Below are positions 14,567 to 64,000 of a DNA stretch of 64,000 nucleotides, piece by piece (position 1 is the first letter of the stretch; each line of letters starts with the position of its first letter). The notes beneath the pieces were generated by a model that did no database searches, had not been told where the DNA came from, and saw only the letters and a list, made by a program, of their open reading frames with translations. A program made the position numbers and the translations under genes. Origin of the DNA: Botryllus schlosseri (taxonomy: Eukaryota); contig CM119371.1 of the NCBI GenBank assembly GCA_051294905.1, positions 24,368,001-24,432,000 on the forward strand, read 5' to 3'.

Positions 14567-14852
14567 ATGTCATCGGGAGGGAGCGCCGATAATTTTGCCG
14601 ATGTGTGCTACGAGGAAATAGCGAAAATCAAGAATGCAGATTGGCTTGAGTTTGCACGCCGGAAATTGGATGTCCCGAACATTGAAATCGACGATATAAC
14701 GACTAACTATAGGCATGACGTACGAGAACAAAAGTTTCAGATGCTGCAATTTTGGAAGTCGCATCTGAAGAATAAAGATTGCAAACCATCTGGTGCGCTT
14801 CGCAAGCTGGTATCGGATTTTCAAGTGTCAACATCCCAATTTGAATGTGCAG
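14567..14852 (+). CDS. NLR exon 1: N-terminal Death domain
   Basis: DWLEFARRKLDVPNIEIDDI...VREQKFQMLQFWK fits the Death-domain pattern W..LAR.L.....ID.I.....EQ..QML..W; donor GCAG|GTTTGT at 14853, phase 1. Confidence 0.85.
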
Positions 14853-38800: not shown

Positions 38801-41800
38801 AACAACATAACAGTAATACACATCCATTTTTATTTTAAACGACTTTTGTAGTACAGTTTCATGTAGTGTGGAATGTTGGAGTCTTTAAAGTTAAGATTTG
38901 GACGTAAAAATGACTTTAGTAAGGAAAATGAGCGCTCCACAGACGCTGATGTTGGTTGACACTTCTGCAATTTTGCATACAGCGCTGGTGAAATGTCTTG
39001 TCTTTGTAGCTCCATAATTTGTTTCACATCGTTTTTGTCCAATCGCTTCATAATGTAATTTTTGAGCTCAAGCGGATCTTTTCCGAAATCGAGGGAATTT
39101 AGATCAGCATGAGCCTCTTTGCTAGTGTACGCACAACTTTCCATTTTCAGTATCAAGTTTGAAATATTTTTGTAGTGGAGGCATATTTCTGTTAACTGAC
39201 TTGTCAACTTTGGATCGTTCACTGAATCTTTGACGCTCTTTACAACAACTCCTTCAGCTTCCCGTGCGTTGACTATTTCTTTCACTTGTGGAAGTCTCTG
39301 AACTTCAAATGACGTCCCACTTCAGTGCACAGAAGTAAAACAGATTGTGTAGCAACACAATGCAATGTGTGACCTCATAATGCAATGTGTGACCTCATAG
39401 GTCTGCGACTGTAATGTTATGTAGGCTAACCTTACAGTTTGCCTTCGTTCAATCAGAAATTGCCTTACTTTCTTAGTGCGTAATTGCTTCAATTGGCACT
39501 TTTTATTTAAAGTATACAACAATATGACTTTAAAACTCAAATATGACCTAACCAGGAAAATATGACTTTATATGACTTTATAACTTTCTTTATATACCCC
39601 ATATTGATGCGGTTTTTGCGTTAAAATTGATTTCACGACTTACTGATGCATAGAAAAAATATGACTGTAATGACTTTAAATGGCCCTAGTAATTACTATT
39701 ACAAGCGTGTTCACTCAGCCGTGAGAAGCCGGCATCGCCGTCCGCCTACCGAAATTCTGAACAGTCAGGTCAGCATTTCCTACGTAAAAACGAGATGAAT
39801 AATGCTAGAGCATTGAGTCATGTTTTGTTGAAATTAGAATATTTTAATCTTTGAAGTAGGTTATGGTCGAGAACGCAGAACGAGGCTACCAGAGTTCACA
39901 CCCGCTCATAAAAACAAAACTGCTGATCAAAACAGACACTTTTCGCCATTCAGCAGACCATGGCACTATGATGCGTCTTGCGGGTAGCTGTGTCATAGGC
40001 GTATAACGCCAAAGGGCAATATTCTCGTTATTATGATACCAAACAAGCCTGGATTAAGCGCATATATTTGATTTTATCGCAATCATCGTGAACCGATTCG
40101 AATTCCGGGAAAAGTACCGATTTTGAAGGGGTTAACAGTTTTTAATTACACAATCAACATTCTTCCCGATCAGCTAACTGTATTATCTCCGCCCAAAATG
40201 CGTCGCGATTCGCGGTTTTTAATCACACGATTAGCATTCTACGGGATCAAGCTACCTTTATTATCTCCACCCTAAGAGTGTCAGCTGCTAATCGAATGAC
40301 GCTGTTTCTAAAACAATGTTCCGAAAAGCGACTATACACACAATACTGAACAATGAACATTGAACATTGAATGAATAAAATTAGGACATTTATTGTGATG
40401 GAACTAATGACAGCCAGATAAAAATGTTGAAATGATGACAGAATATTTGCAGAATAGAGCAACATTAACTATTCATTCAGATTCAGATGGACGGTCTTGG
40501 CTTGTTAAAGATAGCTCGAGTTGACACTTTGAAAAATATGTTCAAGTTTCTGTCCATGCATTCAATAACGAATCTGCGTGTGAACATAAATCCCGTCATA
40601 CTTGGACCAAAGTTCACAGAGATTGTCACGTCTAGTGGACCGACAACACGGAAGGTGGGAAATTTGATTGTTCGATGTTACTGCAGAATTGAACTCTGTT
40701 GTCTGTTATACTACATAGAGTAAAAATACTTTGCAGCAGATTCGGCAACATCACATACTCCATATGACCCATGTCTTTGATGCTGCAATGCCTATAGCGC
40801 CCAAATGAAATCTAATAAACGAACCTATCGCTTATAAAACTGTAGAATGTAGTCTCTATTTGTCATTGATATTTACAAAAAAACGACTTAATAATATGCA
40901 ATGTCCACATGAATAAAGAAGCTCAAGTTGAAACGTTGAAACCCTATCTTCTGTGCCCGAGCATGGTGATAATGTTTAATTTTTAACCTAATTTCTGTAG
41001 TTCGAAGTGGATTAGAATCATTCAACTAACTTTTATATTTGTTCCAAGTGGGCGATTGGTCTCTTTGTATAACCCGTCTGGTAGTTGAGAATTACCTTTT
41101 GGAGTCTGCGAGATAATTTTGTAGCACCACGAAACACGTTCCAAAAAATCAAAGGATCAAGAGCGATGAAATTTTTGTGATAACAAAAATTCAAGGCAAC
41201 TTATTTTTAAACCTACCCCAATGGTGGTCAAACATAACGTTAATGAAGATGAGATATGAAATTTTGTTCGCACTTCGCGCGCTTTAGTGTCACTATGCTG
41301 TTCTTGATTATATTTTGCGTATACCCACTCATGAATAAAATACAACTGATTTCAAAGAAATCAGTCTTCATGTATTCGCAAATATAAGAACATCGCTTAA
41401 GACTGTTAGGAATGTAGCTTAGGGGTGCGCAACCTGCTGGTGCATCATCGACATTTCGGTGTTGACCATTTATGCGCCAGAACAGACTAAGGTTTGACCA
41501 ACATGCGATTTTACGAGAAGTACCCTGCCAAAGAGATTACCGTCGATTAAGCCGTGACCTTAAATAATTACCGCATGCTGGTTGGAACCTTAGAAACTTA
41601 TATGTTCAGCTGATCACGCACCGGAAAATCATGATCTAAGTCCTGCTTGCGAGAGACAAATGCGACTCGTGGAGAAACACAATGCTCCCATATCGAAATG
41701 CCAATTAAAAAGGGCTTTTCCTTTAGTTCAGTCGAGAATGTGTGAGCGATTTTAATGCTTACAGCACACTGATTTTCGTAACACTAGTCAATGCTTACTC

Positions 41801-44800
41801 AGCTCATAGCAAAAAATGACGAGTCATGCGTTTGCCATTAGGTAAATCGGCTCGTTCGTGTATTTGATGTATAAATGGTAGTGATGAACTTACCGGTAGC
41901 GTTAAGGCGGGTCAGAGTGATTCTCTCGCCAGAGGTTGATCGCGCTATGCTGCTCAAGGTCAAGTCAATCGGTTTCCGGGTTTGAATGTGAATTTGGACC
42001 GGTTACATGTAATTTACGATACTAGAGATGCGTTCTCGAAAACGCAACCAAACATAGCCAAGTTGGTCACAAATAATCAGCTACGCCGGTTACATTGTAG
42101 CAATAAATTCAATCGTGTGGTCTATTGTTTATTTTGTAAGGGACCATGAGCCATTTAAAATTACCAGGATTTATTTTACCATTTTTTATTTTAATATGAG
42201 AGCCACTTTCTATAATATACTATCTTCTACCAATAGTGACAGTTTTTCATATGTTGCATGCTTCGGCTTCGTTTCGTAATGTATCGTAAAAGTGGCTATC
42301 CTTTGCATTGTTGTGTAATTTCGAACATCGAGTCCACTCTCATGCGATTACTGCTGCAATGTTCTTAAACAATTTTTCAGGTCTCCATCATGACGATTGA
42401 AGACAAATCAATGACGTCTGAAAAATTTGAGGCATATTTGGATATTTTGCGGCACTGCAAATTCGACGGTCTGTCTCTAGCTAGTTGTGATCTCACCGAC
42501 AAAGATGTTGGCATGATTTTGCAGTGTTGTCGTACTCGGGGTATTGAGGTAATGACTATGGCATCTATAAGCTTATAGTTGCTATTAGGAATGCTTTCAA
42601 CCTCTGAAAGGTTCAGGTTCCTGTGAACGCGAACCTTTTTGAAAGGTTCGGTGCGAACGTGAACATCATGACATCACGTGACGTCAATTTGCTAATCCCA
42701 ACCCTACATTTCAGTGAAGTGATAGCCTATATTAATGTACAGTTGTACACGATACCTAACGATGACTAAGGCCACAAATTGTCTCAAGGCCACATAATGT
42801 CATAATGCTGAAGTACATATTACAGTTTTAAAAGTCGTCAAATGTATGAACTGGCTATCTTTGCTTGCTTTGCCAACAATTTCGCTTTGCAAGGGAATAT
42901 GAGCCTACGCCTTAACGGTCTAGGCCTGAACGGATAATGTATTCGGCGTCTGAGTATTGCTATGTAGATATTGAGCAGTGTGAAACGAGTTTCTATACTT
43001 GCCACCGATATTACCACATTAACAAAGTTATACAGCAGTAGCCAACAGGCGAATCACAAGGATTTGGTTTTTATGGTACATAAACATATGAAGTCAAAAT
43101 TGACCCCGTACGCCCGCTAGATTTATCACATCAGACAACGATGTCCATTTCTTGATTGGTTGAATAAGCATCATTCAATGCCCACCTACTACTTGTAGTG
43201 TATTTCTGTCTTGATGATGTTCTTTGATTGCGTTTCAAGCTCACAGCAGATTCACTAAATGTTCACAAATGGAAAACTGGATAATTCGTGCAAACTTTTG
43301 AAGCAAAGCAAGTAAAAATTTCCAGTTTGTCATGGTGCATGCTCGTTTAGTGTTGATTTTTATACTTCCAGGGCCATGAATAGAGTGGCCTGCAGTTGAA
43401 ATGCAATAAATTTCAACCAGAGATGCAATAATGAAGTGAGAATTGTAACATATGAAAAAGGCTTGCAGTGCCGAACCTACCAAGGTTTTTTTGTGAACGC
43501 GAAACTCTACATTTCTGAGGTTCGCAGACAGAACGCGAACGTGAAACTCACTTTCACACCATTCCTAGTCGCTATGTTAATTGGACATTGCGAAAATAAT
43601 GAAATCATAAATACCTTGGATGAATTTGTAATTTCGGAATCTGGAGTAGGCCTATTCAAGATATGAAAATATTCCAAATCGTGTACCTGATAATGACAGG
43701 TGGAGGTGGTGCATAAAAGATTTTAGAATTACTATATATTCCGCCCTGTGCTGGGATTCAAATTTTTCATATCACAGAAAATCATATTAGTTGGCAAATA
43801 AAATGAATTTTTCGTATATGTGTTACAACAAATTTAAAAGAAGAGAAGATAAATTGAAAGCGGTGCAATGGCAAAATCAACAGTGAGGCAAGTCAAGATA
43901 ATATCCTTACATGCAGCTATAAAAAACAGTCTGACTCACTCGAGGACTTTCTGACAACAGCTCCTCTCACTATCACACCATTCAAAATCAAATATGTGAC
44001 AACACACAGCTAGCGCTAGCGCTAGCGAGGTCGCTAGTGAAGTCGATTCCGGTGTGTTTCACTTGCAAGCTCGCTTGTGAATTTTGTCGTGACAGTATCA
44101 CATCACAGCCTTGAAAAAAATTATTGTGAAAAATGGATCAATTGTTCGGAGACTTCAGTTAACACATTGCAACATATAAAACTGAATGACATTTGTGACT
44201 ACAAAAACGAATCTCATGATATTTAAATAGGTGAAAATACAAGAACCACAAGAAATCAATGCTTAAATTACAGCACATTCTATGTAAAACGATAACGACA
44301 CTGGCCGTGTAATGATGGACGCAGAGATAACAAAATCTGATAAAAAACTATTAATGATACCCAACCGATTCTTGATATGAAAGATCATGACTGCTACTGG
44401 ATATTTTGTGGCGCCGATTTTACGATTTGATCATGGTGGTCACTTTATCCATCAAGTAGCTGTTGTGCCCTACAAAGCTCTCCGCAACTCTCTAACGTCA
44501 AGCCAATCGCAAATAAATATATCACTACGATCCCGCATTTGCCTGCTGAAAGATGCGTTAATTTATTGAATGACCGTGCCTATTAAAGCAGGGATGGGTA
44601 ATTATTTTCCTCCACGGGCCAAATGAGAATTAGAATATACGTTGGCGGGCCGAGTGGAAAGTCAATATTCTCCAGAGTATTTCATATCATTTCTAAATTA
44701 CATTGTTAAGAAATGCTGCTCAGTGAATATGTTGATGTTAGGTAGGCTTACCATATTTTGGAAATCTAAGAAGAGGACACTTTTTCATAAATTTGAGACT

Positions 44801-47800
44801 TGCAAAACCGGAGAAGAATTCTCAAAAATCGGTGAATTTTTCCCACTTTGTGATCAGTTGACTAAAAAAAAGGTCAACTTTGCGCTCAGAGTTCAAAATA
44901 CCGTTTTTCTCTCCACATTGCTAGGTGGATGACTAAAAAAAAGGTCAACTTTTCGCTCGGAGCTCAATTCACCGTTTTTCAATCAGAAATACCCGTCGGA
45001 TCGTCACTTCTGTGCTAATTTACGGCATATCACTCGCATTTTGCTCGTACCGTGAGGTTGCAATATCATTCAGCTTTCCGAAGTTATGATATGGGATGGA
45101 ACGATGACATCCGATGTCTATTGTGATGTCGCGGCTATTCTCGGTGTCACGGGATGTACGAAAGTAACTTTCGGAAATTGTGATCTGACGAAACAGAAGT
45201 TGGGGTGCTTCACGAGAAACTGCAAGAGAAATCAAATATCAGTGAGTTGGAAAATGTGTTGATAAAATTGTCAGTATGTAAATAATTCTTTTTTTTCGAA
45301 ATCATGCAGATAAAGAGAGGCGTATAGCAGAAATTGAGAGAGTTCTCGTAAAGCATTATGATTTCCAAATGCCAAATTTAGATGCGACAGTGGTTCTCAA
45401 ACTAGGGGTCGCCAGACAATATTGCAGGACCTAAAAGCACGTTCCAAACAATTCACACGATCCAGAACAAACAATTTCATAGAACTTGAAAAAATCAGCA
45501 ATTTAGTGTCCAAACCAACACTCGGAGGGCCCGAAGCTATAGCATAAAGCATATTGTTTTGTTGTTGAGGGATTCCATTAGAAATTTATTCGCGGTTCGC
45601 ACGATTCAGTGTCACTAAAATATTGTATTGTGCGTATATGCGAATAATTTTACAGAAATGGGATACTTGTGGTAATTGGCGTACTACCTGCAGTTGCATC
45701 ATTGGTATTTTGGTGCGGGTCTTTATTCCGCGCCAAGACATCCTGGAACATTCGAAGGCTCCGCCAGCATGCTACTCAACTAAAAGTGCCCTGCCAAAAA
45801 TATCACCAGCAATAGTGATCTCCACATTTAGGCCAAAATCTTGTACAGTACTATCTCCAGGCGATGAAATAGCCGGCACCGAATAGTCGAGTCGTTGCAA
45901 TTCAAGCAATGTCCTGTATTATTGCAAATTTGAAAGTGACTTTTTCCATCAATTCGGTCAGGCTTGTGTGAGTTATTACAATACACTGGTCTACACAAAA
46001 TTTCAGGTTTGGGTTTTGACAACTAATTTTGGCTAATTTTGCGGCGCTGAATCCGAAAATGACCTCAGATTTTCTCCATCACATCATGTTTTTGAGAAAT
46101 GAAATAGCCCCAATTTTTTTAGAAAGTTTATTTTGACCCCCCTCTGCTCACAAAAAAGGAATTCTGATGCAATAAACACCGTTTTTCCTGTAATCATCTA
46201 GCTTTAACTAGCAAACAAGCATTTTATATTAGATTCACACAAATTTGCGTTGTCTTTATTAAAATTTCATGCCCGGAATAAAAAACAGGCATGCAAAAGA
46301 GAAACCATAATAATATCAAAAGTTACATTATGCTGAAGAACATGTCGATAGAAAAGTAACAAAGTATAATCAGAATTATGGCCTAGAGTTCACACAATAT
46401 GCACATAGACATCCCAATGGAGTGCAGGAATTCTGAAGACAGGAACTTGGACAGGACGAGTTCAGAAACAGTCAAAAAATTGCTTTCATAAAATACGAAC
46501 TCTTCACTTATAAGCTTGAAAAGGCTCTTTTGGGGGACTTTATTTTACGAGCAGCATCTGGAATTTATCTTTTGCAACTCCAGCAATAGTCGGCTATTAT
46601 ATGAAATCCAGGTACAGGTTGCGACTGTGTCCTTGTCCTTGTACCGGATTTTCACTGGTGTGAGAAATAGATGAATCTATAAATCCCGCAAACCTTGATA
46701 ACGTGCTTCCATAAGTGTAATATATTGGCGGAAACGCTCACCCTGTTCTTCACTAACATTCCCAAGGTGTTCTGAAAACCCATCCGCATGGCTCTTCAAA
46801 TCGTTAACTTTGATGCTCATCCTGCATCTCAAATCTTCAAAACCAAGCAGTAGCTCCCTTAAGAGATATTTATAATTTTCTGCTTTTATGTTTCCCAAAC
46901 AACCGCACTGAAAGAATTCCAAGCTCTAGCCTCAAATGACAACATTGATTGTAGGTTATACAAGATTTTGATCCTTTAACGATTGCGTAATTTGTGGTCC
47001 ATTGAAAATCCCAGTTCTTTTTTGTTTTCACCGAGACCAGAAAAAGCATAACATATTACGTATTGTTTCATGAGACCACATTTGATGTGAAGAGGAGGCA
47101 AGAGGATATTTGTGATATCAACAAACTAATCAGTGATCACGTATTGAAGTTTTGTCTCCAGGCGTCAAGCTGAGCCTTGGAGGCCACTATTTTTTGTTCC
47201 ACTGCTGATCCTTAACCCTGCTGTCCCAATAGCATGGGAAACATGGGTATTCGGTGTAGCCACTTGGTTGCCCCAGCAAAAAGTTCACCATTTTAAAATC
47301 TACACAGATGAACCAGCTATGGTCATAGTGCTTCAACTTTTCGAGAACGATTTTGATGTTCTGATACTCTTCTTCATTGTTCATTGCAATAACAAGTCAC
47401 GTTTATACAAGCTTTGGGAGTTGTTCTTTTGCATGTCTTTTTTTTATTCCAAGGCATGAAATTTTAATAAAGACAACGCAATACAGTGTTTATCACATCA
47501 GGGTCAAAAATTGATTTTTTTTCAAAAATAGGGATATTTCATATCTCAAAAACGCGATGTGATAGAGAATATCCGAGGCCATTTTCGGATTCAGCGCCCC
47601 AAAATTACCCAAAATCAATTGTCAAAACCCAAACCTGAAAAAAGTTGAAATTTGTAGACCAGTGATATCAGTCGAGTAGCGACAATCATTACGTGAGTCC
47701 ACGAAATAACAACGTCAATCTACAAAGTAGGCTACTTATTAATATTGATAAAATATATTCCGTGACTGTAAAATTTTCGCGCCTACCGCGAGTAGAACAC

Positions 47801-50800
47801 GGCTGTATAATGATTTTTCATAAAACTGGTTGGTGCTTAGAAACGAAGAAATTTGGTGTTTTGCGTTTTTTATGCTTAAGGTTCAGGATTACCTATAGCT
47901 GGTTTATGAATCGGGTTGATTAAGGGTAGTGATGAAGTTAGCTGTAGAAGTAAGACAGGTCTGAACGATTCGTTACCCAGATATCAGGCTTATAAACCTT
48001 TGTTCGCAATAATTAATGAATATATGAATTTGAAACAGTTTAATGAGAGTCACTACATTAGGGCCGTGTAGCCAAAAACGTAACTAAACATGGCCCAGTT
48101 GATCGCACCTCGGCGTCATACAAATCCATCACATTGACCCCATAAAATATTATGTGTTGTATTGTTTTGATTATATAAGGGACCGAGATTCAGTTAAGAT
48201 ATTGCCAAGGAACCGTTTCTTGAATGATTTTGAAAGTTTGAGAACGACAGGTAATACACAATCACACCGCTATGTATATTTATAATTCATGTCTTCTGGC
48301 CTTTCGAATAAACAAAGAATTAAACTGAGCTTAACCTACACTGTATTTGTAAAAAAAAAACGTTTGTGTTATATATTTGTTGCTGCGTAGATCTCTCGTC
48401 TGCAAATATGGGATCATAAAATGCCAGTTGAAGTTTATCGCGAAATCGCAGTTACACTCAAGGCCACGAATAGCAAAGGAATGCTGTTCCAAAACTGCGA
48501 ATTGACAAGATCAAAGCTTTCGGAATTCTACACCGGATGTAAAGACAACGCTCTATCCGTAAGTCCCCTTATTGTATATGAAACTTGCATCGCAAAGGTT
48601 AGAGTGCTTACAAGGGTGATCGTCATCTACCACTAGATCATGAGGAGTTCTTGATAGACTTTGCGATACTACATGCAATATTAGAATCATACGACATCGT
48701 GAATGAAACGGATGATATTAACAGTAAATGCTGGTTATAATCGACCCTATATTTTCAATTCTACGTAATAAGGTGTCATCTACGTATGTCAGTCCACTGT
48801 GACACACTAATGAAAATACTTAATAAGTAGGGCGATTTTTTTTTGACATGTCAAAAAAAGTCAAAATAAGGTCAAAATTCTAGCGTTAGGTCAAAAAATG
48901 TCAAAATTGTTCACAAAGACAAGATTTTTTGCAACCTGCAATTCATTTGTATCGTAGAATTTGCACAATCGGTGAACGTATCGTTTGACATTTCACAGCT
49001 TGTAGCCTACTCTATAGGCCTACCGTTGCATACAGCGCAATTGTCTGCTCATTGTGAATCATAACAGTCAAATGAAATAAACAGGTTGACACGATGTTAT
49101 GCTCAACGTACCGCAATATCCTAAGTGAAGCAAGACTGCGAGGGCATTGCATGGTTCTTACATCTGTATGAAAAATTGAGATGTACACCATTGTCAGAAT
49201 GTAGCAACTCTGTGTGTCACCAGCAGTGTACGCACGCACAACTTCATTGCTGTCAGCCAACAGCTGCTACAGTTGAACGTTCTTTCTCCATTCTTGTTGT
49301 TGTTGTTTGTATATTCATGGTGTTTGTCGAATACAATGGTCATTTACACCAGGCCAATATTCCTTATTTTCGATTCCGTATCCGCCGAGTATCTGCCAAC
49401 TTGTAGCACGGCCCACTTCTATGCTTTTTGTAAGACACCGCTTACGCGGTGAGATGACGAGGAGCCTAGATAAACCTTCAACACTTGGGTAGTAATTCTG
49501 GAGTCGACCTCGGTTGGACTAGAATCCACAACCCATTGGTGCTGTAGCTGTGGATTATACCACTATACGCTATCTCGCCACATCTCCATTATTGACAAGC
49601 TATTTAGTAAATACTGACACTTTTTACCCGAGAATCAGGGATATCTGTAACTAGATATGTAGATATCCCTGCCGAGAATGTAGGAAAGTATCTTTCTTTG
49701 TACTACAACAATTTTTAATTGTTTTCCCTACAGTATGTCACGTACTGGAATTCATTATAGGGCCAGATTTTGTTAAAATAATATTTTGTTATGTAAAGAT
49801 TTGTCAGTTTTTGAGTCAAAAAAGTTTTTTCAGGACAAACTACTTCGTAAGGACAGACAGTTCAAACCAGAAATGAGGATAAGTAGTAAAATTCTAACAT
49901 TTTTCGGGAAAACACCTAATTTGCATACGTTAAGTCAAAATATGATCAAAATTTAGTTTTTTAAGGTCAAAAAATGTCAAAATTCAGATTTTTTAGGTCA
50001 AAATCTTTCGTTTTTTAGGTAAAAAAAAGTCAAAATAAGGTCAAAATTCTAGCGTTAGGTCAAAAAATGTCAAAATTGTTCACAAAGACAAGATTTTTTG
50101 CAACCTGCAATTCATTTGTATCGTAGAATTTGCACAATCGGTGAACTTATCGTTTGACATTTCACAGCTTGTAGCCTACTCTATAGGCCTACCGTTGCAT
50201 ACAGCGCAATTGTCTGCTCATTGTGAATCATAACAGTCAAATGAAATAAATAGGTTGACACGATGTTATGCTCAACGTACCGCAATATCCTAAGTGAAGC
50301 AAGACTGCGAGGGCATTGCATGGTTCTTACATCTGTATGAAAAATTGAGATGTACACCATTGTCAGAATGTAGCAACACGGTGTGTCACCAGCAGTGTAC
50401 GCACGCACAACTTCATTGTTGTCGGCCAACAGCTGCAACAGTTGAACGTTCTTTCTCCATTCTTGTTGTTGTTGTTTGTATATTCATGGTGTTTGTCGAA
50501 TACAATGGTCATTTACACCAGGCCAATTTTCCTTATTTTCGATTCCGTATCCGCCGAGTATCTGCCAACTTGTAGCACGGCCCACTTCTATGCTTTTTGT
50601 AAGACACCGCTCACGCGGTGAGATGACGAGGAGCCTAGATAAACCTTCAACACTTGGGTAGTAATTCTGGAGTCGACCTCGGTTGGACTAGAACCCACAA
50701 CCCATTGGTGCTGTAGCTGTGGATTATACCACTATACGCTATGTCGCCACATCTCCATTATTGACAAGCTATTTAGTAAATACTGACACTTTTTACCCGA

Positions 50801-53800: not shown

Positions 53801-56800
53801 ATCTGAAAAGATAGTAATACAATACGGTATTGGGCTCTTGTTCGATGAGTAACATAACTTTCAGAATGATCTTTCCCACATTCATATTGGTATAGAAAAT
53901 CCGGGTGCCATACTGTCATTACATAATATATACAATAATCGTGTACTATTCTACGTATATAAGGAATCCATCGTAGTTAATGTAAACTTTAAGAATAAAT
54001 CATATAGACCCAAACAGTATCTAATGAATTTATTAATAATAGCTGTTGAAGGCAATCAGACATCTGTGGTCGGTCAAACTTGTCAACAAGTTCTTTGAAC
54101 TCTGGCTGCATATCGTACGTAGAACCCTCTTAGTAAAGACTGAACGTGAAAATCAGTTATTTTGGAGCGCAGCCTTGCTTCGTTATTATTCGATGTTCGT
54201 GGCCTAAAATGTATGTAGACCCGATAAGAGCAAGTAGTTTCATCTCAATATTTCTCTGGTTGGCAAACTTGGATTCATTCTGCGGCTAATACATTTTATC
54301 AATTATTTCAGAATAGAATTTAACTTTCAGGGTAGAAACTCTCAGCAAGACGGTCAAAATACTTTGGCGGGCGGGATATGGGACGCGGGCCGGGGCTATT
54401 GCTCCTTCGACTAAAACGGTTTCCAACCACTGTCATAAACTGACCAGGACTACATCATTATGCAGAGGTCTTCATCATCAGAACACCCATTACGCACCAA
54501 TGATTTATATCTAACTGCATGCTATAAATGTTAAACCGGCGACGATTTCGAGTGTTCCAGCCACCTCACATCGATTACATCGGCTGTATTGGGTGAAAAT
54601 CGTTCCATAGGCTCATACTTTTTGCTTTTTACGAAAGTATTCACACAATCATGGCATTCATCAAACAAAGCTTGAAAACTAAACTTGAAAAAGGATTTGT
54701 CAAAAGACTGTCTAACAAAAATGTAAATCGAGTGTTTTAATAGGCCTACACCATTTGTTTTAAATGTAACATTAGTGATATTACTTTATTACTTTCCATT
54801 GGAACCTCGATATTGCTCACTCCTACAAACAATGACACCGATATAGAAACGGTGGACTGTAAATCACTGCAACATCTTCCAGCAACACGACGAATAGTAT
54901 TCCACGATATTGGTTCTCAGTCGTACTGACTCGAGTCAAGATTTTCCGATGACTCGGCTTGACTCGAGTCATTTTCACTGAATACGGAATTGACTCAACT
55001 CGAATCGAGTCAATTTGAGTATTGACTCAACTTGGACTCGAGTCATTGCGCATGACTCGAACAAAGTCCTATGATTCGAGAATCAGACGGCCAAGACCGA
55101 CATTTCATAGCAATTTCGAAGAATAGTAAAGTAACCACACTATCGGGATTTCGTCTATTGCCACTGGTACTTGAAAATGAGGAAATTATGATATTATAAA
55201 TGCTAACCATTCGATATCACCAAAGAGAGTTCTAATAAGAGGAATTAACAAGACTTTAACTGGAAACTGAGCACTTAATACAATGACCGGGCCCGGGCTC
55301 GAGTCATAATACCTTGACTTGGACTCGACTCTCTGCTCGCTGACTTGAACTCGGACTTGACTCGGTGGTGAATTGAAAACAACTCGTCTTGGCTCGAGTC
55401 AAAACTATAAAAGTGAGATTGACTTGTGACTCGGAACCTTGTGACTTGGCTACAACCCTGATGAATCGCCTCATATTTAAAATCCCCGAATAATTGACCG
55501 TTACTGACTCATCTCATTCAATGGGCATGAGCCCACTTTCCGAGTAGTTTTCACTAATCGCTAATAGCTTTTTTGCTGGTGTAAGGCAAAATCGGTCGAA
55601 TACAGTTACACGGTCATCAAGTTATAGTCACGTGACAATGCAACGAATATAGATCTTGCTCATCTGAAAAAAAATACAGAATATTTCAACAGATTTCAAT
55701 TAATAATATTCTTGCCGCTTTAGTATTGCCAAATTCTATTACTCTGAGAGGGATTTGAAGTTGTACGGGAATAGAAATACTTAATGGGTTATATATGGGC
55801 AACGGGAAGGCTATGAGGGTGCTAATGAAAGATGGGGTACAAGGATACCTTAATAATTCTCATTACAAAATAACTATTCGCCAGAATAGTTTATTGTCGA
55901 CATTATTTGTAGCGCGATAAATCCTGACGATGAGCGTAATTTCACGAATGCAGGGGCCAGTAGTATTTCATGCATAATGTAACTTATAATCCTATTACGC
56001 ATATGTAACACCGCAATTCGTTACGTAAAGTAATCGAATTTTTATATTACTTTTATAGCTCTCGGCGTTAGATATAATCGATGTCAAAATGCCAGCCGAA
56101 TGTTATCGCGAAATGGCAATTATACTCAAGTCAATCAGCTGCAAAACGACAACATTCGGATATTGTGAATTGACGAGACAGAAGCTTTCTGAATTTTACA
56201 GCGGATGCAAAGACAGCGATCTTAGTGTAAGTGCATTTAATGTTCCAGAAAATTGCATTCTTTAGATCGGGGATGCTTACGAGGGCGATCGCGTATATAT
56301 ATCGTACACTTATATCGTGACGTATTCCGTAGCTTGACATAAGGCTAACGGTATATCGGGCCACAATGCGAATCAAAATTTTTAAAATTAGAAATGGGTG
56401 AAATTGACGGTAATCTTCCATCAGTCAGGAGATTGGTAGATCATGGATCCGTGCAGTATAGATACTCACCAAAATCGGATCACCCCTGGGCCAGATCATA
56501 TAAACACACAATTGTCAAAATTAATTAACATGACATCATATAAAGAATGAATCCCGGATTCTTTATCTGGTTTAGATTACTGTAAGCAATGACCACAAAT
56601 GGGAAATAGTTGCAAAATGTCATTGACTTCTGAATCACATAGGGTGCTGGTTTCCAGACAAGTGATAGTCTGACATCGTGTTGTTCCAATTGCTGTACAT
56701 CTTCTCGACTATCTCTATGATCTTGAAGGAGCTGCGCAATTGAAATTTGCAATACATAAGAGTGACATCAAGCAATCGAATAGGCATTTGAATATAAATG

Positions 56801-59800
56801 ACGTTCCAATTTTGCTTTTTCGTTGCATTTACCTGCCTTAAATACATTACGGGCTAACTTAAATTTTGAAGATTTACCAATCCCCTAAATTTGTCTTGGC
56901 GTACTGTTGATCTGCAAGCTCGAAAAGGTTAAGAACCACTGATTGATATCATCATCGCGATTCAAAGGTTAATCATTATTCAGCTTTCCAAACTGTCGAT
57001 ATGGGATGGTACGATGACGTCAGATGTCTACTGTGACGTTGCGAATATTACCAGTATCACAGGATGTCGAACGCTAATATTGGGACACTGCGATTTGACG
57101 AAAGAGAAGATGGGATGTTTCGCGACAACCGGGAAAGACAATCAGATGTCGGTTAGTTGTGAAATATGAATGAATTGCTGTTTTATAAATATTTCTCTTT
57201 CCGATATCAAGACAGAAAGATTGGTAACTTAGCAATAATAAGGTGATGGCGTGGCAAGAGTTGTCAAATAAATGTGGAAAATCGTAACCCCCGTCATGTC
57301 GAATGTAATGTATATTGTTATTAGGGATGGTATAGACGTGAGGTTCACTCTCGCGTTCTATGTGTGAACCTCAGATATTTTAAGGTTCACGTTCACAAAC
57401 GAAGTTAGTTAAGTTTTGCACTGCAAACATTTTTCATGTATTACAATTTTCGCGTCACTAGAACGTGTCTTTTCAATGCGCTGGCAGCATGCAAACAAAC
57501 TCAACAGTAATCGAATATGCATCTTTCAAATTTCAAAAAAAATCCTTGAAAGTTTGCTCGGAATATTCAGCTGTCCGTTTGTCAATATTTCTCCGCTGGG
57601 AGCTTTGCCAACAATTGAACATTATGGTGGACGAAACACATCACATGTAGGAAGTCGGTGAATCGCGTTTTCTCAACCAATGCATAGAAAATTATTGTGA
57701 AAATTATATCATGCGTACGGGAGCCATATTGATTTGAAATCCGTATTGAAAACCCGATTGGAGTGTTGGCTAATGCATAGCTTGTTTTCGAGACAATATC
57801 TGGCGCAAGTATATAAACCGGCGTTTCACTATTAACAAAACACCTTTCCGGTGGAAGTGGTTCCTCGTGAAATTGTTGCAAAGCAACAGAAGTTATTGAT
57901 TTTGCCGGATTATTATCACACGTGATTGTTTGAATTCATTGAGTGACGTTTCGGATATCAGCATATGCTTCAGGATTGTAACATAAGGTGACCGAGTCGT
58001 CTTTAGTTATCGTATACTTTACCGACACGTATGGTTAGAATTGAAAATTTGACGTCACGTGACGTCATTGGCTTACGTCCGCGTTGAAACAGATCCATTC
58101 AAAATGGTTCGAGTTCACACGATGCAGACTCAAAATATGATAAAATGATAACTCATGTTTCCCTTCTTTTCTCTCGAAAAAAAGTAAATCATACCCAATT
58201 TAATGTAAGTGACTTCTATACAGCAATCGGCTATTGTCATAAATTTTTGTTTTACAGCTCTCAGATCTGGAAATACGTGATGTCAAAATGCCAGCAGAAA
58301 GTTACCGCGAAATTCCAATTACACTCAAATCCGTTAAATGCAAAAATGTAAAATTCACTAAATGCGAATTGACGAGAATGAAGATCTCTGAATTCAAAAA
58401 TGGATGCAAAGACAACCATGTATCGGTAAGTTCTACTAATGTACCGGGACGTGCATCGTGTAGATTGGTAGTTGTTGTTGCTGTTGTTGTTTGTGGTGTT
58501 TATGGTTTTCATCGACTACGATCGTCATTTAGACCAAGCCGATATTCCCTATTTTTTCATTCCGAAACTGCCGACTTGTCGCATGGCCCAATTCTGGGCT
58601 TGTTAAGATACCACATACGCGGATGAGATGACCAAGGTCCAAGAATAATCTAGAGAGGGAATGCGCTCCAGGGTATTCCAGAGCGAACTGTAGATTTCGA
58701 GATAAAATCTAACCTTTCTACCGTGCACCAATATTAATCATAACGGCTCTTTGTATTCTGGCTACAGCTTACCTTCCATTTCACCAAAGTGAACTTTACG
58801 TCCATTTTTGACCAGCTTGCCGAGCGCTAAACTCGATAAAACGACCATTGATTGGAAGCTGCTGCCATACTAATTACGGAAATATGAAATTTATTCTGCT
58901 CGTGGACCTGGTACCCCCCAAAATCAGCCAGAAAAATTTACATTTAGATCGAGATTGGAATTGTGATGCAACAGTGCTGTCTGGCTCTTTGTTCTTACCT
59001 TCACTCTCGTTTTTCCACATATAATTGTTGCGTCAGAATGCCAAATCCGATCTCAATGCAAATTTCGAGGCAGATTTTGGGAGGTTCCATGTCTATGAGC
59101 ACATTAAAATTTATATTTTTATAATCAGTACAACAATAGCTCTTCATTGATACCCGTTTCCTGGAATTTAGCGGTTGGGAAGCAGGTCAAATATGACAGT
59201 AAAGTAGCCTTTGGTCATATCGAAAGTATGGAGTAACCCGAATGCAGTGAGCTATTGAGTTTCGCTGTGTCCACGCCGTATAGGACACTATTGTCAAACT
59301 GTCTGATAGTTGACATGCGTATATTTCATTACGAGAAGCAAACGTACCAGAGTTCTCCCATTCGTCAGACGCCTGCGATTTTAAGCTGGTTTCTTCATGG
59401 AACGCATCATTTTCATCGGCAGTTCGCATTTATACGGCGGGGGTCACATTGACATGGTACCAGACATGGGGTGATTACTTCATGAATGTAATCGATTGCG
59501 ATTACGATTACTTCTGAATCACGCGATTACGATTACGATTACGATTACAGCAAAATCGGGAAGTAGTCGATTACGATTACGATTATATTGTAAAAGTAAT
59601 CACGATTACTCACGATTACATTTATTTTGTATCGTAGTAGTTATATGGGAAGACAATACATGGATTGCGCCGGAAAGGCCCAATGATATAACAACTGTCT
59701 TTAAAAAAGATGGGACGGACATTTCCTTGTTACGTCATAATGTACCCATGGCCCATTTTATAGAGGACGGTTTATCGCACCCAATGATTTGCATTCTTGC

Positions 59801-62800
59801 AAGGTCCATAACTGCCGCACCCCTAATTCCCCAATAGGGTGGGGAGCGTGGTTGGAGGGGACTCAAAAGTATTTTGTAAACGAACATAAATTATAGAGTA
59901 TTTTCGAGAGATTTCATTAACTTGGAATTTCTCTTTGAGCTTTGCGATTTGAATGTCTCTAGATAGCTTGATTTTGAAATGCATACGTCTCCCCCTCAAG
60001 AAATAAAGCATGCATAATTAATTGTAATAGGCATTTAGGTGCCAGTCAATACCGCTCCTCAACACATCGAAAGACATATGCAGTTTTGGCCAACATGAGA
60101 CTCCACGAAGTGTGCTATTAAAGAAAGACATTGGCCAAAACTTAGGGTATGTGTCCATTGTTAATAGCCGCGCTGGGTGGGCGTGACTAACAGTCCATTC
60201 CTTCCAATCTGAGCCCACGATGCAAATGCCACCCGGGCACCCACAGAGCATTTGACATGTCAATTTGTGTGTGCGTCTCAGTGGTCTCACGCAAGTTTTT
60301 CTTTTAGTCTGCTGTTTGGGCCGCTACAATCAATATCTTTTGGCTATATAACAGACCGAAGGTCATGAATTAACAACATACAATAAAGTAATTATTGCAA
60401 GATACCATACGTTATAATTATGAATTACACCCCCCCTCTTCAGGTAAATCTGACCATCGGGCGCTGAGATAGGATTAAAAATGCAATATAATGCAATTAC
60501 CATTATTATTGACGAAATTAAATCTTCAACTTCAAAATTGACTACTCTATGGGGGCCCAAGACCAAAGTTTGGTTGGGGGACGCTTTTGCTGTTTTGATC
60601 CTGGTTCTAGCAACAACCCACGCTAACATGGTATATAAGCCGATGGCTATGGCTGCAGGTCCAAATGTTCAGTAAAGAATTGTGAAATAGCGATTGGCGC
60701 CCGTTTTGAGTAGAATAATAAGAGAATAACGGAAAGTGAACATAAAATTCTGCCTTCAACTTAATGTGATAATGTAATGCTGCAAGCTGCCATTACGAGA
60801 AACGGCAAAACAACGGCCTAGTTATGATCTATATCAGCAGCTGTTTATTTTAATGCTTCGTTGTGGAAACCGTAATGTTTTATATGACGAGTACAAAATT
60901 TTAAACCTTTGTCTGCTGTACGTTCGTACCATATAGGCCTACTGCTCACCAAGCAGCAACGGTGAAACTGGATTTAACTATAGAATTAGAACTATTACAT
61001 TCTATAGTTTAACTAAGCATAACCTAACATCAATACAAAAGTTGCTATTTTAACTTAGGCAGAGAGGTGATTATGATTAATTATCCTGATGCGAGGTAGT
61101 GGCGTCTGAAATGTATTGATAAACCGATATACAGCACGGTGGGTTTTCTTACAATCACACTAATGTACATCGAATGTCTATTTACTATGTGTGGACAGTG
61201 GACACTTTCTACGCAAAGACGAGCAAAGCTTATAGGCTACCTCTGACGTAATAATGAGCAGTGGCAATTGAAAATCAGACGTTTGTACTCTCAATAACTG
61301 GTATAATACCCTTTCCTTGTTCACGAGTGTTCACTGTTCAGTTTATGTCACAGTCCTTGTACAAATAAAAAGTAATCGTTCTTTTACAAAGTAATCGATT
61401 AAATATGGGAAGTAGTCGATTACGATTACGATTACTTCGGGATTTTTTCGAATGTAATCGATTGCGATTACGATTACTTAAAAATGCTGTAATCGTCGTA
61501 ATCGATTACGATTACTAATCGCGATTACCCCATGTCTGCATGGTACCATTATAATAAATACGAAAAGATTGTAAGAAATTTTTAGGTTTATTGAAAAACC
61601 CCAATGATATTTCAACGAATTCTTAAATTCAAATAGCATATTGACGCTAGCCAACAACCGCTAGTTTAATTATGTGTAGAAGACCGCATAATTATGGTTT
61701 TACGTCTGAATGCGCATCATTCAATTCATATTAGTTGGTTGCTAGTATCAACGATTCTTCTCAATCTCAATTACTCAGCATAGGCACAGCAAGCAAACTC
61801 AAATTCCTATTTGTTTTGTTCTGTAAATACACTATCCTGATGTGGATCTAGTGAGTTTAATCTCATCATAAATGAAATCAAAGTTCTGGATATTTTGTTA
61901 TGTTTGTGATTTATTTACCAATTTGACCAGTGACATGAAAAATACAGATTGAAATAAGGATAGGTTATAACTTAACTTCATAATAAAAATTGAAGATCAA
62001 GATAAAAGCTTCTCATTTCATGCTATCTGTGTAAAACGCCGATGAAATTATTATGGTTACCTAATAGGGAGTACCGGCATTCAATGTTGTATGCTATTGA
62101 AAGAGGCATTCCATTTGGTATGTGGAACGCGCCAATGAAATTTGTATGTTTGGCTAGGGAGATCGGCATTCACTGTCATATGCTAGGGTTACCATATTCC
62201 TGTGGTACAAATTCCTGACACTCAAGCCAACTAGCTTTACGAAATAAAGTGTGTCATTTTCCAAATCGGTATGGTACAATCCGATTCACTTGTACGAATT
62301 ACAAGCTAAATAATACAATATGTTAACACACGTTGACAACACAATACTTCAGTTTTCGATTTTAATGCAGTAGGGCCCTTCTTAATCGGCGCTGGAATTG
62401 GAATCGTCAAGAAATAACAATTCATTCGCGGCTCTGAACAATCTTCCTGCCCCGCGCATCAATATGCACCCACAGTAGCTATTCATAACATTGCCACTCG
62501 CGATTTCGGTGCGTACAATAGGCCGTTGCGAAAAGTAGAATGGTCCGGAGTTCACTGGAAATGGATATGTACCGTTTACCATATGCATTATGCGTCCATA
62601 TAGCTCACTGCGGCTAGGCCCTAGAATGCGGCCTTAGGTTACATAAATAATCGAAATGCGGCCATGATCAGCAAAAATGTTGCCCACCTCTGTATTAGAT
62701 GATGTGCTAGTTTTGACATAACGATAAATGCAAGGGGGGGGGGGGGGGGCAGGTGGCGCGATTGTATGACCATCGCCATAGGGGCCGAAGGTCATAAAAG

Positions 62801-63902
62801 GTTGAGAACCGCTGTGATAGACAAAAGTGCGAAACAGTAGATGCCAATTTCTAGGAATGCAATTTCACTAAATAGTTCGTATGTCATTATCTTAAAGATA
62901 TGTCGAAATACCGAAATTTCTGCGTTGGCCACACAAAGTCATGTCGTCGCGAAAATAAGTTGAGCCCTGCCTTTCGTATAGAATATGCAAGTACAGAATG
63001 GCGAAAATTTGATAATCACTAAGACTGTCCATTGGAGAGACCTGGCGAAATCAACGAATATTTTGAATGGCAACAGATAAATGTACCTAGGGAATGTATT
63101 TCGTACTCAAAATCTCCACATTTGTCAGAAATGTGCTGGATAATACGGCAATTTTTCAATAATCACTTCGCGGATTGGATGAAATCGTCAGGCGGGCCGT
63201 ATGTTTGAACCCACTGCTGTACATCGTCGACTCCAATACTACTTCAATATTAGCGAGACGTACAAATTAACAGCATCTCAGCAAATAAGAATTGATCATA
63301 TCTACGACAGCGTGTGCAAAATAAGGCAGCGTAATAATTACATAAACAGTGATTACTAACAGCACACTGTGTCATTGCGTTGATACAAAAGGGTGCTGGA
63401 TTTCGGTCAAGTGATAGTTTGACATCGTGTTGTTCCAATTGCTGTACATCTTCTCGACTATGTCCATGATTTGGAAGGAGCTGGGCAATTGAAATTTGCA
63501 ATACACAAGAGTGACTTCATGCAATCGCAGAGGCATTTGAATTCAAATGACGTTCCATTATTTGCTTGTTCGTTGCATTTACTTGCCGTAAATACATTGT
63601 GGGCTAACTTCAATTATAAAGATTTACCAGTTACCGATTTTTTTTTTAAACGTACTGATGGTCTTCAAGCTCGAAAAGGTTAAGAACCACTGATTTATAT
63701 CATCATCGCGATTCAAAGGTTAATTATTATTCAGCTTTCCAAACTGTCGATATGGGATGGTACGATGACATCAGAAATTTACTGTGACGTTGCGAATATT
63801 ACTAGTATGACGGGATGTCGAACGCTATTTTTGGGAGACTGCGATTTGACGGTAGAGAAGTTGAGATGTTTCGCGACAACCGGGAAAGAAAATCAGATGT
63901 CG
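14567..63902 (+). CDS. NLR (Death-NACHT-LRR) innate immune receptor, >=12 coding exons, 3' end beyond window
   Basis: Exons 14567-14852, 19588-20726, 21198-21360, 22260-22579, 40487-40654, 42381-42548, 45074-45241, 48391-48558, 56059-56226, 56984-57151, 58258-58425, 63735-63902 have GT..AG intron boundaries with matching phases (1,0,1,0,0...). Total 3252 nt = 1084 codons without a stop. Domain order Death, NACHT, HD1/WH, HD2, LRR. Confidence 0.88.
14880..15190 (+). mobile_element. Second tRNA-derived SINE just downstream of NLR exon 1
   Basis: A box TAGCGTAATGG and B box GGTTCGATTCC followed by a non-tRNA body; no acceptor stem; 3' end approximate. Confidence 0.6.
15932..16842. mobile_element. 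hAT (Charlie-like) MITE in NLR intron 1
   Basis: TIR CAGAGGT(C/A)TCA; perfect TSD CCCTAGTC. Confidence 0.82.
19588..20726 (+). CDS. NLR exon 2: NACHT NTPase, HD1 and start of winged helix
   Basis: Acceptor TTTTCTTAG, phase 1. Walker A GEAGAGKST (19824-19850), Walker B ILLTIDGLDQ, sensor 1 RILTTSR, MRGFD, LCRNPMFL, FSFSHQTMQ. Donor CAG|GTTAGC. Confidence 0.92.
21198..21360 (+). CDS. NLR exon 3: winged helix end / HD2
   Basis: TTCAG|GAA continues SHQTMQ-EFCCALH, matching the NLR FxHxxxQEFxAA motif; MRQLLYGL; donor G|GTAAGT, phase 1. Confidence 0.88.
22260..22579 (+). CDS. NLR exon 4: HD2 / LRR transition
   Basis: Acceptor CACAG, phase 1; open frame GRSTPIEECREMMFEQ...RLLSEC...VEIFE; donor GAG|GTAGCT, phase 0. 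Confidence 0.75.
23997..26049 (-). mobile_element. Kolobok DNA transposon, internally deleted
   Basis: TTAA TSD on both sides; TIR GGGGGTAAGGTACT; minus-strand remnant CPDC...GFATEISIGVSCC...FTSS (25170-25463) like the Kolobok transposase N-terminal zinc motif. Confidence 0.8.
26178..26450 (+). repeat. Subterminal degenerate ~55-bp tandem repeat of the Polinton end
   Basis: 4-5 units alternating TGACCTGCC and GGTGACCCCACCCT cores. Confidence 0.8.
26979..27589 (-). pseudogene. Tandem OB-fold ssDNA-binding (RPA/SSB-like) gene, disrupted
   Basis: OB1: VKFVSSPKR...YLKGIFIDGNNEEISFTCF. OB2: VSIAATCVSREEKMVNSGTGKELKLYSFALKDDTGEVVLDQW...GKKYQLT. The two ORFs join via one frameshift (~27275) and one in-frame TAA (27217-27219). 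TATAAAT at 27637-27631 lies upstream of MASNS. Confidence 0.65.
27752..28105 (-). CDS. Candidate viral Bcl-2-fold protein (~117 aa)
   Basis: Intact ORF from MATSAII. TSAIIENYLLY resembles BH4/alpha1, FTALVNTIRSYGVDWNGVLSLISIA resembles BH1, and LTSDWVRRK resembles BH2, with plausible spacing. Pattern recognition only. Confidence 0.5.
   Translation of the reverse strand: MATSAIIENYLLYYHNLTTPTLSETEKFIHGVLDFYVHGEIVNRVRKCDFTALVNTIRSYGVDWNGVLSLISIAAMKSDIHSVAVYRDLTTDILNTHYSTLTSDWVRRKFIRIICHL
28238..28744 (+). promoter_or_regulatory. TATA box and multi-exon non-coding 5' leader of pPolB
   Basis: TATAAATA at 28238; predicted introns 28380-28442, 28476-28535, 28579-28642, 28680-28744 (60-65 nt; GTAAGT/GTTAGT/GTGAGT/GTAAGT...AG). 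Confidence 0.6.
28745..31017 (+). pseudogene. polB: Protein-primed family B DNA polymerase (Polinton type), frameshifted near 30140 and 3'-truncated
   Basis: Motifs DNLCAFRCIA, HFCLITN, C2H2-like CDTCEKFF...LARHKC, LQFLDIVNYL, KAHFPYQFL, LPNHDEFY, SLRDYLKWCNAND, GGPSIIFHR, SLYLYAL, PTG. Probable start ATG at 28745 (MSRRRRNR) directly after TTTTACAG. Polymerase motifs B and C are absent. Confidence 0.88.
32190..32645 (+). repeat. ~42-bp minisatellite, about 10-11 units
   Basis: Recurrent CCTGAGTAACAA(T/A)ACC(A/G)TTTTCACTTGGAAATATATTTTTT units with two variants. Confidence 0.9.
33656..33688 (+). repeat. (CTGA)n microsatellite
   Basis: About 8 perfect units. Confidence 0.9.
34304..35263. mobile_element. 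MITE with TA TSD (Tc1/mariner-like)
   Basis: TIR GGGGAGATGTGGTACCGATGGATCA; TA duplicated; the empty site is visible in the related copy near 35600. Confidence 0.8.
36579..38065. mobile_element. hAT-type MITE
   Basis: TIR CAA(A/T)GTTCCCTCTAA; perfect 8-bp TSD ATCATGGC. Confidence 0.82.
38660..39688 (-). mobile_element. hAT deletion derivative retaining transposase C-terminus (38830-39285)
   Basis: TIR TAGGGCCATTT; TSD GTAATTAC; ATATGAC subterminal repeats; hATC motif CQPTSASVERSFSLLK. Confidence 0.88.
40487..40654 (+). CDS. NLR 168-nt LRR-like exon (divergent); in-frame alternative acceptor at 40481
   Basis: TTCAG|ATG GAC...CGG AAG|GTGGGA, 56 codons, phase 0/0, ITNLRV strand motif. Confidence 0.65.
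42381..42548 (+). CDS. NLR 168-nt LRR exon
   Basis: TTTTTCAG|VSIMTIEDKSM...FDGLSLASCDLTDKDVGMILQCC...GIE|GTAATG; ribonuclease-inhibitor-like LxLxxCxLT motif. Confidence 0.85.
45074..45241 (+). CDS. NLR 168-nt LRR exon, type A (missing from ORF track)
   Basis: TTCAG|LSEVMIWDGTMTSDVYCDVAAILGVTGCTKVTFGNCDLTKQKLGCFTRNCKRNQIS|GTGAGT. Confidence 0.87.
45984..47664 (-). mobile_element. Chapaev3-like (CMC) DNA transposon, decayed
   Basis: CAC...GTG termini; ~150-bp TIR beginning CACTGGTCTACA; 3-bp TSD ATA. Transposase remnants WFICVDFKMVNFLLGQPSGYTEYPCFPCYWDSR, LPPLHIK and VSEEQGERF...MEARYQG with stops/frameshifts. Confidence 0.8.
48391..48558 (+). CDS. NLR 168-nt LRR exon, type B
   Basis: CGTAG|ISRLQIWDHKMPVEVYREIAVTLKATNSKGMLFQNCELTRSKLSEFYTGCKDNALS|GTAAGT. 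Confidence 0.87.
48828..51206 (+). mobile_element. hAT derivative with 1169-bp internal tandem duplication
   Basis: TIR TAGGGCGATTTTTTTTTGAC, flanked by TAATAAG; GTCAAAA repeats; hATC remnant CQPTAATVERSFSI; near-identical units offset by 1169 bp. Confidence 0.85.
49293..49581 (-). mobile_element. tRNA-derived SINE with (CAA)n tail; other copies at 50462-50750 (-) and 2119-2362 (+), partials at ~14230-14410, 15215-15365, 51500-51630, 58470-58640
   Basis: Head GGCGAGATAGCGTA...(G/A)TTC(G/T)AGTCC with A/B-box-like motifs; shared core GTAAGCGGTGTCTTA...TTGGCCTGGTGTAAATGACC; TSD TCTCCATT. Confidence 0.75.
52111..53651. mobile_element. hAT-type MITE with TACTT subterminal repeats
   Basis: TIR CAGAGGTGGTCA; imperfect TSD CGCATTCT/CGGCATTCT. 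Confidence 0.75.
54919..55460. mobile_element. MITE with GACTCGAGTC subterminal repeats
   Basis: Arrays of GACTCG/CGAGTC at both ends; right end TACAACCCTG; left end approximate. Confidence 0.55.
56059..56226 (+). CDS. NLR 168-nt LRR exon, type B (missing from ORF track)
   Basis: TTTTATAG|LSALDIIDVKMPAECYREMAIILKSISCKTTTFGYCELTRQKLSEFYSGCKDSDLS|GTAAGT. Confidence 0.87.
56640..57250 (+). repeat. Segmental duplication (intron + type A LRR exon), paired with 63390-64000
   Basis: Colinear similarity from AGGGTGCTGG through the exon to TTAGCAATAATAAGGTGAT. Confidence 0.92.
56984..57151 (+). CDS. NLR 168-nt LRR exon, type A (missing from ORF track)
   Basis: TTCAG|LSKLSIWDGTMTSDVYCDVANITSITGCRTLILGHCDLTKEKMGCFATTGKDNQMS|GTTAGT. 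Confidence 0.87.
58258..58425 (+). CDS. NLR 168-nt LRR exon, type B
   Basis: TTTTACAG|LSDLEIRDVKMPAESYREIPITLKSVKCKNVKFTKCELTRMKISEFKNGCKDNHVS|GTAAGT. Confidence 0.87.
58700..59290. repeat. Old fold-back MITE (long degenerate inverted repeat); related copy ~53120-53470
   Basis: 58720-58950 is an imperfect reverse complement of 59045-59280. Confidence 0.55.
59461..61538. mobile_element. hAT-type MITE with GATTAC subterminal repeats
   Basis: TIR CAGACATGGGGT; perfect TSD CATGGTAC; (CGATTA)n arrays. Confidence 0.88.
63735..63902 (+). CDS. NLR 168-nt LRR exon, type A
   Basis: TTCAG|LSKLSIWDGTMTSEIYCDVANITSMTGCRTLFLGDCDLTVEKLRCFATTGKENQMS|GTTAGT. Confidence 0.87.
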
Positions 63903-64000
63903 GTTAGTTGTGAAATATGTATGAATTGCAGTAATATGAATATTTCTCTTTCCGATATCAAGACAGGAAGATTGGTCTTAGCAATAATAAGGTGATTGCG

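Follow-up and report, generated by a model that had tools for sequence, protein, structure and literature searches.

The 64,000-nucleotide stretch of Botryllus schlosseri DNA analyzed here (hereafter the window, to which all positions refer unless a chromosome is given) probably carries the beginning of a single large Death-NACHT-LRR sensor gene, whose arm of 23 repeat exons has grown by block duplication and would mostly be spliced consecutively, and whose head was likely swapped. Read past the window end, the gene model comprises 28 coding exons and 1,986 amino acids, with 0 internal stops over a span of 271 kb; the 1,084-aa model drawn earlier within the window was reproduced without stops. 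The Death-NACHT-LRR architecture proposed by this earlier, sequence-only reading was supported. The first exon matched Pfam Death (PF00531, E 2e-7, above cut-off) and is phase-compatible with the NACHT exon, in whose translation Walker A (GEAGAGKST) and Walker B (TIDGLDQ) are intact and the winged-helix motif FSHQTMQ is found. The top atlas match for the NACHT region was NACHT/WHD_NOD2 (0.96). The LRR part was recognized by its pattern and predicted fold.

Several observations concern the unity of this model. The terminal exon is conserved in the five cluster genes examined (5/5), no NACHT other than the gene's own precedes the conserved last module and terminal exon, the closest flanks of the late array exons are those of earlier exons of the same gene, and no N gap lies within the gene. 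Two introns of the model measure 71 and 82 kb and an exon close to its end is damaged, so that a shorter transcript would be conceivable. The idea that these two introns conceal a second gene was rejected, as no NACHT, exon-3, exon-4 or e0 match was found there. One very large gene is the likely reading, and its architecture suggests that it encodes an intracellular innate-immune sensor. By eye, long ORFs in the 22- and 82-kb introns resemble retroelement proteins. The Polinton-like element of intron 4 showed a DNA_pol_B_2 match (E 4e-4, under the curated cut-off), and the same intron holds a palindromic element of ~350 bp (35264-35611) and a degenerate tandem repeat (32158-32644). All features of the window are listed in Table 1.

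Table 1. Coordinates of the features of the gene model and of its surroundings within the window.
Feature	Position	Strand	Remarks
Death-domain coding exon	14567..14852	+	from likely start ATG; ends in phase 1
NACHT exon	19588..20726	+	phase 1/0; Pfam NACHT PF05729, E 2e-12, above cut-off
Post-NACHT exon 3	21198..21360	+	phase 0/1; conserved in cluster paralogs and Styela models
Exon 4	22260..22579	+	helical domain to repeat-region start; phase 1/0
Decayed mobile element, Polinton-like, outside gene model	27254..31014	.	both strands carry long ORFs; lies in intron 4 (18 kb)
e0, degenerate first module, 174 nt (168 nt from second AG, 40487)	40481..40654	+	paralog comparison
e1, position-specific second module, 168 nt, phase 0/0	42381..42548	+	
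A1, two-LRR exon	45074..45241	+	
B1, two-LRR exon	48391..48558	+	sister to exon 3 of paralog g9 in exon tree
B2, two-LRR exon, predicted strand-helix-strand-helix fold	56059..56226	+	model; probable RNA contig match from first base
A2, two-LRR exon	56984..57151	+	
B3, two-LRR exon	58258..58425	+	54-55 of 56 residues same as B4-B8 beyond window
A3, two-LRR exon	63735..63902	+	protein identical to A4-A7 beyond window
Start of 5.65-kb tandem A+B block	61539..64000	+	five copies; continues past window end

Within the window, the eight array exons were found at the starts claimed for them (40487 for the first one, the others as in Table 1), each of them open, AG/GT-bounded and of phase 0/0, and any subset is therefore frame-compatible, as had been claimed. 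The last six fall into two classes in the order A-B-B-A-B-A, also as described, with amino acid identities of 57-83% between A exons, 57-62% between B exons and 30-41% between the classes. Between 40 and 64 kb, 10 open frames of the form AG-168-GT were counted, vs a mean of 1.5 (max 5) in 50 mononucleotide shuffles; the similarity that the seven typical exons show to one another is stronger evidence than this count. For the first exon (e0), the two forms announced do exist, whereas 168 nt as the main form did not hold: the 174-nt form, with its acceptor before 40481, is conserved in 4/4 paralogs checked, and the 168-nt form needs a second AG present only in this gene. The e0 donor is GTGGGA here vs GTGAGA in these four paralogs. 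The ungapped identity of e0 to the other seven exons (3-8%) indicates a degenerate first module. In an intron of the array, 1.18 kb are duplicated head-to-tail with 98% identity and no exon inside (48850-51197).

The composition of each exon as 2 x 28 residues had to be corrected, since the predicted strands at residues 3-7 and 30-34 give two repeats spaced 27 and 29 residues. None of the eight window exons matched a Pfam LRR family (0/8). With a 13-exon profile the best PDB match was a designed LRR protein (E 0.005), and with a 59-exon profile the best PDB sequence match was ribonuclease inhibitor (E 0.002), the matches being spaced at ~57-residue multiples. Pentapeptide-repeat proteins scored nearly as high as ribonuclease inhibitor against the exon profile; this reading was rejected because the exon model has two long helices. 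The AlphaFold model of B2 alone reached a pLDDT of 91, and Foldseek with this 56-residue single-exon model, which is very short, returned no match at E<=0.001. The full model of a relative from Styela clava showed alternating strands and helices at its end and matched NOD2 and NLRP3 with E 1e-20 to 1e-22, NACHT included. The best reading of pattern and predicted fold is an atypical LRR of the ribonuclease inhibitor (RI) class.

The nearest named NACHTs are uncharacterized models of Styela clava, with 32-34% identity, and they point to a styelid-like ascidian. A word-indexed protein search for longer NACHT relatives gave none among 3,490 candidates, and an exhaustive protein search gave 172 NACHT relatives at E<=0.001. 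Three RefSeq models were compared with this gene: XP_039248824.1 (2,508 aa), XP_077976001.1 (1,650 aa) and XP_077966284.1 (1,118 aa). The first two contain the same repeat of 55-57 residues (32 and 12 profile matches, respectively, consecutive up to 32), and the last two carry Death domains like this gene, apparently as three Death repeats that are 29-32% identical to its own. As in this gene, no Pfam LRR match was obtained for the Styela models.

The array had been described as running off the window end, and 15 more open exons were indeed present beyond it. It consists of 23 phase-0 exons in the order E-ABBABABABABABABABABB-C after e0, with one damaged B exon before C, and all 22 exons after e0 are AG/GT-bounded. 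Five copies of a 5.65-kb A+B block share 99.1-99.97% identity over 3 kb, and A3-A7, identical in protein, are all located inside these blocks. These five copies above 99%, the 6-22 exons found among paralogs and the decayed intronic exons show growth by duplication of exon-plus-intron blocks; its likely means is unequal crossover, one of the two routes of diversification put forward by the sequence-only reading.

A search with the NACHT core yielded 108 matches among 150 scored candidates, 29 of them with E <1e-30, and eight of these 29 form a tandem cluster at C1 23.45-24.82 Mb. Of the cluster genes, five were mapped completely, over 1.06 Mb, and contain 6, 13, 22, 11 and 13 open array exons, counts that leave out three upstream cluster genes fetched in part. 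Among these 65 open exons, 63 are of the AG..GT type, and four further exons, located in introns, are damaged. One g5 array exon has a GC donor (C1:24011402) and one g6 array exon a non-GT donor (C1:24247199); g6 also has a damaged e1. The search for paralogs of the A and B exons was fruitful, as one A exon matched at least 120 places and one B exon at least 91. In the exon tree, exons group by class, with gene-specific bursts, and exons common to different genes occur at different positions. The genomic order among paralogs includes AA, AB, BA and BB neighbours, A-to-B being the commonest.

Four raw RNA runs (X20, X22, X23, X24; 3-6% of each read) were compared with positions 40300-48800 at 88% likeness. 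The depth fell almost wholly on intronic repeats, with traces on e0 (X20) and B1 (X23), and no exon joint was present in these four runs, whose reads are too few to bear on skipping. No RNA run was listed by the run search. Run X12 was guessed to consist of RNA, and in one of its contigs (depth 2.1) an A-type exon is followed, in frame and without intron, by a B-type exon; the 35 letters across the join correspond to the 19 left in the A exon and the first 16 of the B exon, the predicted borders exactly. The match of a second X12 contig (512 nt) starts at the first base of B2, with 16 differences in 164 bases. As these contigs differ from the allele studied, they represent a relative or another allele, and they argue for splicing at the predicted borders at the family level. 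Among the few reads sampled, no read or contig joins exons of the exact allele, Death to NACHT, or NACHT to the array.

The second route proposed, alternative splicing, leads to the reading in which combinatorial splicing is the main diversifier, cells skipping varying subsets of cassettes so that one gene gives many sensors. It agrees with the free choice of subsets in frame; all four kinds of neighbours occurring among paralogs, the modules look mutually compatible; and several donors deviate from GTAAGT. Skipping of LRR exons is also on record for human NLRP3 (PMC6642158) and brown-algal ROCOs (PMC11378527). Nevertheless, the few reads and contigs held no skipped junction, and the sole junction is A-to-B, the commonest genomic neighbour. 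Eight Styela isoform models allowed five pairwise comparisons, none of which (0/5) lacked an internal module, with 1-3-residue indels or truncation only. Moreover, symmetric phase permits exon skipping and is equally a precondition for genomic duplication, and choosing among five identical A exons would add no variety. We consider combinatorial splicing unlikely as the main diversifier. In Dscam-like arrays, one exon is chosen per cluster, in a mutually exclusive manner. Such a choice was not found here, given the direct A-to-B join and the up to 32 consecutive repeats of the Styela model, which form a weak test.

On the preferred reading of an arm grown by block duplication, the exons would mostly be spliced consecutively into one long ribonuclease-inhibitor-like solenoid, and their symmetric phase would keep the frame upon germline gain or loss of modules, so that arm length and binding face would vary among paralogs and probably among alleles. 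The NACHT ATPase would then be activated by a bound ligand or guardee, and recruitment of a death-fold adaptor would fall to the Death domain. The swap of a phase-1 exon, by which Death would have replaced the short strand-motif head of the cluster, may have rerouted the output of one sensor.

This swap can be followed in the upstream DNA. In seven of the eight cluster genes, a short phase-1 exon coding for a strand-prone motif of 33-36 residues precedes NACHT; this gene gave no match to it, and the Death exon is absent before the other cluster NACHTs examined. The NACHT of this gene is sister to that of g9 (100/99) within the eight-gene clade, and to either side of the site where g9 has its short-motif exon, the upstream DNA of this gene is colinear with g9. 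The Death exon has four close copies elsewhere (C16:1.83 and 1.96 Mb, C4:20.53 Mb, C8:5.18 Mb), with 76-86% amino acid and 87-92% nucleotide identity and with intron flanks in common, the shared segment with flanks being 13362-15931. A copy that precedes a distant NACHT gene is 92% identical to the Death exon of this gene. Downstream of one copy, at ~2 kb, stands a NACHT with just 24% identity to the one here; another such NACHT follows a second copy at ~26 kb. Around the remaining two copies, the 20 kb examined contained no NACHT. With its flanks, the Death exon is present in at least 5 places of the genome, ahead of unrelated NACHT subfamilies, and is likely a mobile head cassette. The simplest reading, with a direction taken from the tree, is that it was likely imported and the short head lost. 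Just after the Death exon, an insertion of ~330 bp (14881-15216) is 94% identical to dispersed copies in L103 and L112 and is absent from the C16 copies. The short head exon (C1:24808073-24808171 and six other cluster genes) is N/V-rich and RHIM-like by eye; tunicates appear to lack RHIMs, according to Kajava et al. (PMC4262963).

A broader scheme would regard the cytosolic receptors of ascidians, in the sister group of vertebrates, as two-ended cassettes, with phase-1 heads (Death or a short amyloid-like motif) swapped among distant NLRs, phase-0 LRR cassettes added or lost through recombination, and skipping that differs between single blood cells, so that each cell would contribute to an anticipatory repertoire. 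We hold this scheme to be quite unlikely.

Selection was counted pairwise, with ten strand positions chosen a priori. At the core positions of the repeat, dN/dS was 0.16-0.21, which shows purifying selection there. Over 20 disjoint pairs of exons, pN was 0.157 at the ten strand positions vs 0.076 elsewhere (p 7e-8). The pN/pS ratio at strand positions was 0.96 overall (B 1.22, p 0.18; A 0.75), which is not significantly above 1. An entropy test of variability found higher values at strand positions in class B (permutation p 0.001) and no significant effect in class A (p 0.13). Judging from strand alternation, the variable residues would face the ligand.

These results also bear on the reading of the gene as a weakly expressed or decaying copy, whose block expansion would be neutral slippage of a repeat array. 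RNA reads were almost lacking in four runs, which is in line with it, as are the weakened e0 donor, the damaged late exon, the large element-filled introns and the signs of birth and death in the neighbours (damaged e1 and non-GT donor in g6). However, only small fractions of runs from unspecified tissue were read, and the intact 1,986-aa frame, the 22 AG/GT array exons, the Walker motifs and the purifying selection on the core make this reading distinctly improbable. An assembly error as the source of the five almost identical blocks is scarcely credible: two copies do differ by only 1 base in 3,000, but the other copies differ by 0.4-0.9% with indels, the gene is free of N gaps, and for DNA run X1, which probably comes from the source sample, the depth is 37.5-41.9 in contigs departing from the window like downstream block copies vs 9.3-9.9 in contigs identical to single-copy flank, a ratio of ~4 that counts against an artefact, depth itself being no copy number.

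Modular LRR exons, exon shuffling and head shuffling are already in print for other groups. Human NLRP3 has two-LRR exons of 171 nt that undergo skipping (Hoss et al. 2019, PMC6642158). In vertebrate NLRP/NLRC and ribonuclease inhibitor as well as here, uniform, frame-preserving exons code for two RI-type repeats and stand after NACHT (PMC6642158). Vertebrate NLRP exons, however, measure 171 nt (28+29) and have their border within the strand, whereas the exons here measure 168 nt (27+29), their border lying two residues ahead of the predicted strand; these differences in length and border make an independent origin plausible. Also, the NLRP type has a pyrin head, whereas this gene has a Death head, and here the exon number ranges from 6 to 22 among close paralogs.

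In brown algae, LRR exon shuffling and splicing have been described (Zambounis et al., PMC3341825; Teng et al. 2024, PMC11378527). The algal receptors and the present genes share intra- and intergenic exon copying, variable exon number (13 vs 17 in recent algal duplicates) and dead intronic exons (PMC11378527). A variable binding face is reported for the algal receptors (PMC11378527); here, strand positions are twice as variable, with pN/pS not significantly above 1. The algal genes differ in that each exon encodes a single 72-nt repeat, in that the core is ROC-COR or NB-ARC, where NACHT is found here, and in that alternative splicing is reported for them (PMC11378527). They also include inverted exons, whereas no minus-strand array exon of at least 14 bits was found here in 1.06 Mb. 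Invertebrate expansions of Death-NACHT-LRR genes, with LRRs invisible to Pfam and N-terminal head shuffling, were reported by Yuen et al. (PMC3879445); these families share with ours the tripartite architecture, lineage-specific expansion and heads that do not follow NACHT phylogeny. What differs here is that a single recent swap is traceable in DNA with its intron flanks, and that a strand motif of 33 residues is the head that gave way. In the titles and abstract openings searched, no description of ascidian NLR exon arrays was found; counts of ascidian NLRs may be given in supplements of papers.

If its nearest named relatives place it correctly, the gene represents a large and rapidly changing family of NLRs that escapes the Pfam LRR models and belongs to the vertebrates' sister group. 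Two questions become directly approachable at this locus: is the symmetry of the LRR exons of use in germline expansion or in somatic splicing, and does a traceable swap of heads redirect a sensor from a short-motif pathway to a Death-domain one?

In runs from other samples of this organism, only 9-20% of the words of the NACHT exon (19587-20727) are present, vs 72-81% in one sample. High allelic divergence, the presence of paralogs only or partial cover could account for these low shares. In the contig runs X5, X6 and X12, the unique introns at 55.6-58.3 kb were uncovered at 85%; for X5 this would agree with an allele that is absent or strongly divergent, although such holes in contig sets prove nothing by themselves. 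More arrays of the same exons were seen at C7:28.47-28.66 Mb and C12:17.1-17.4 Mb, and the C7 array contains several equally scoring copies at a spacing of 6.3-6.6 kb, which suggests another recent block expansion.
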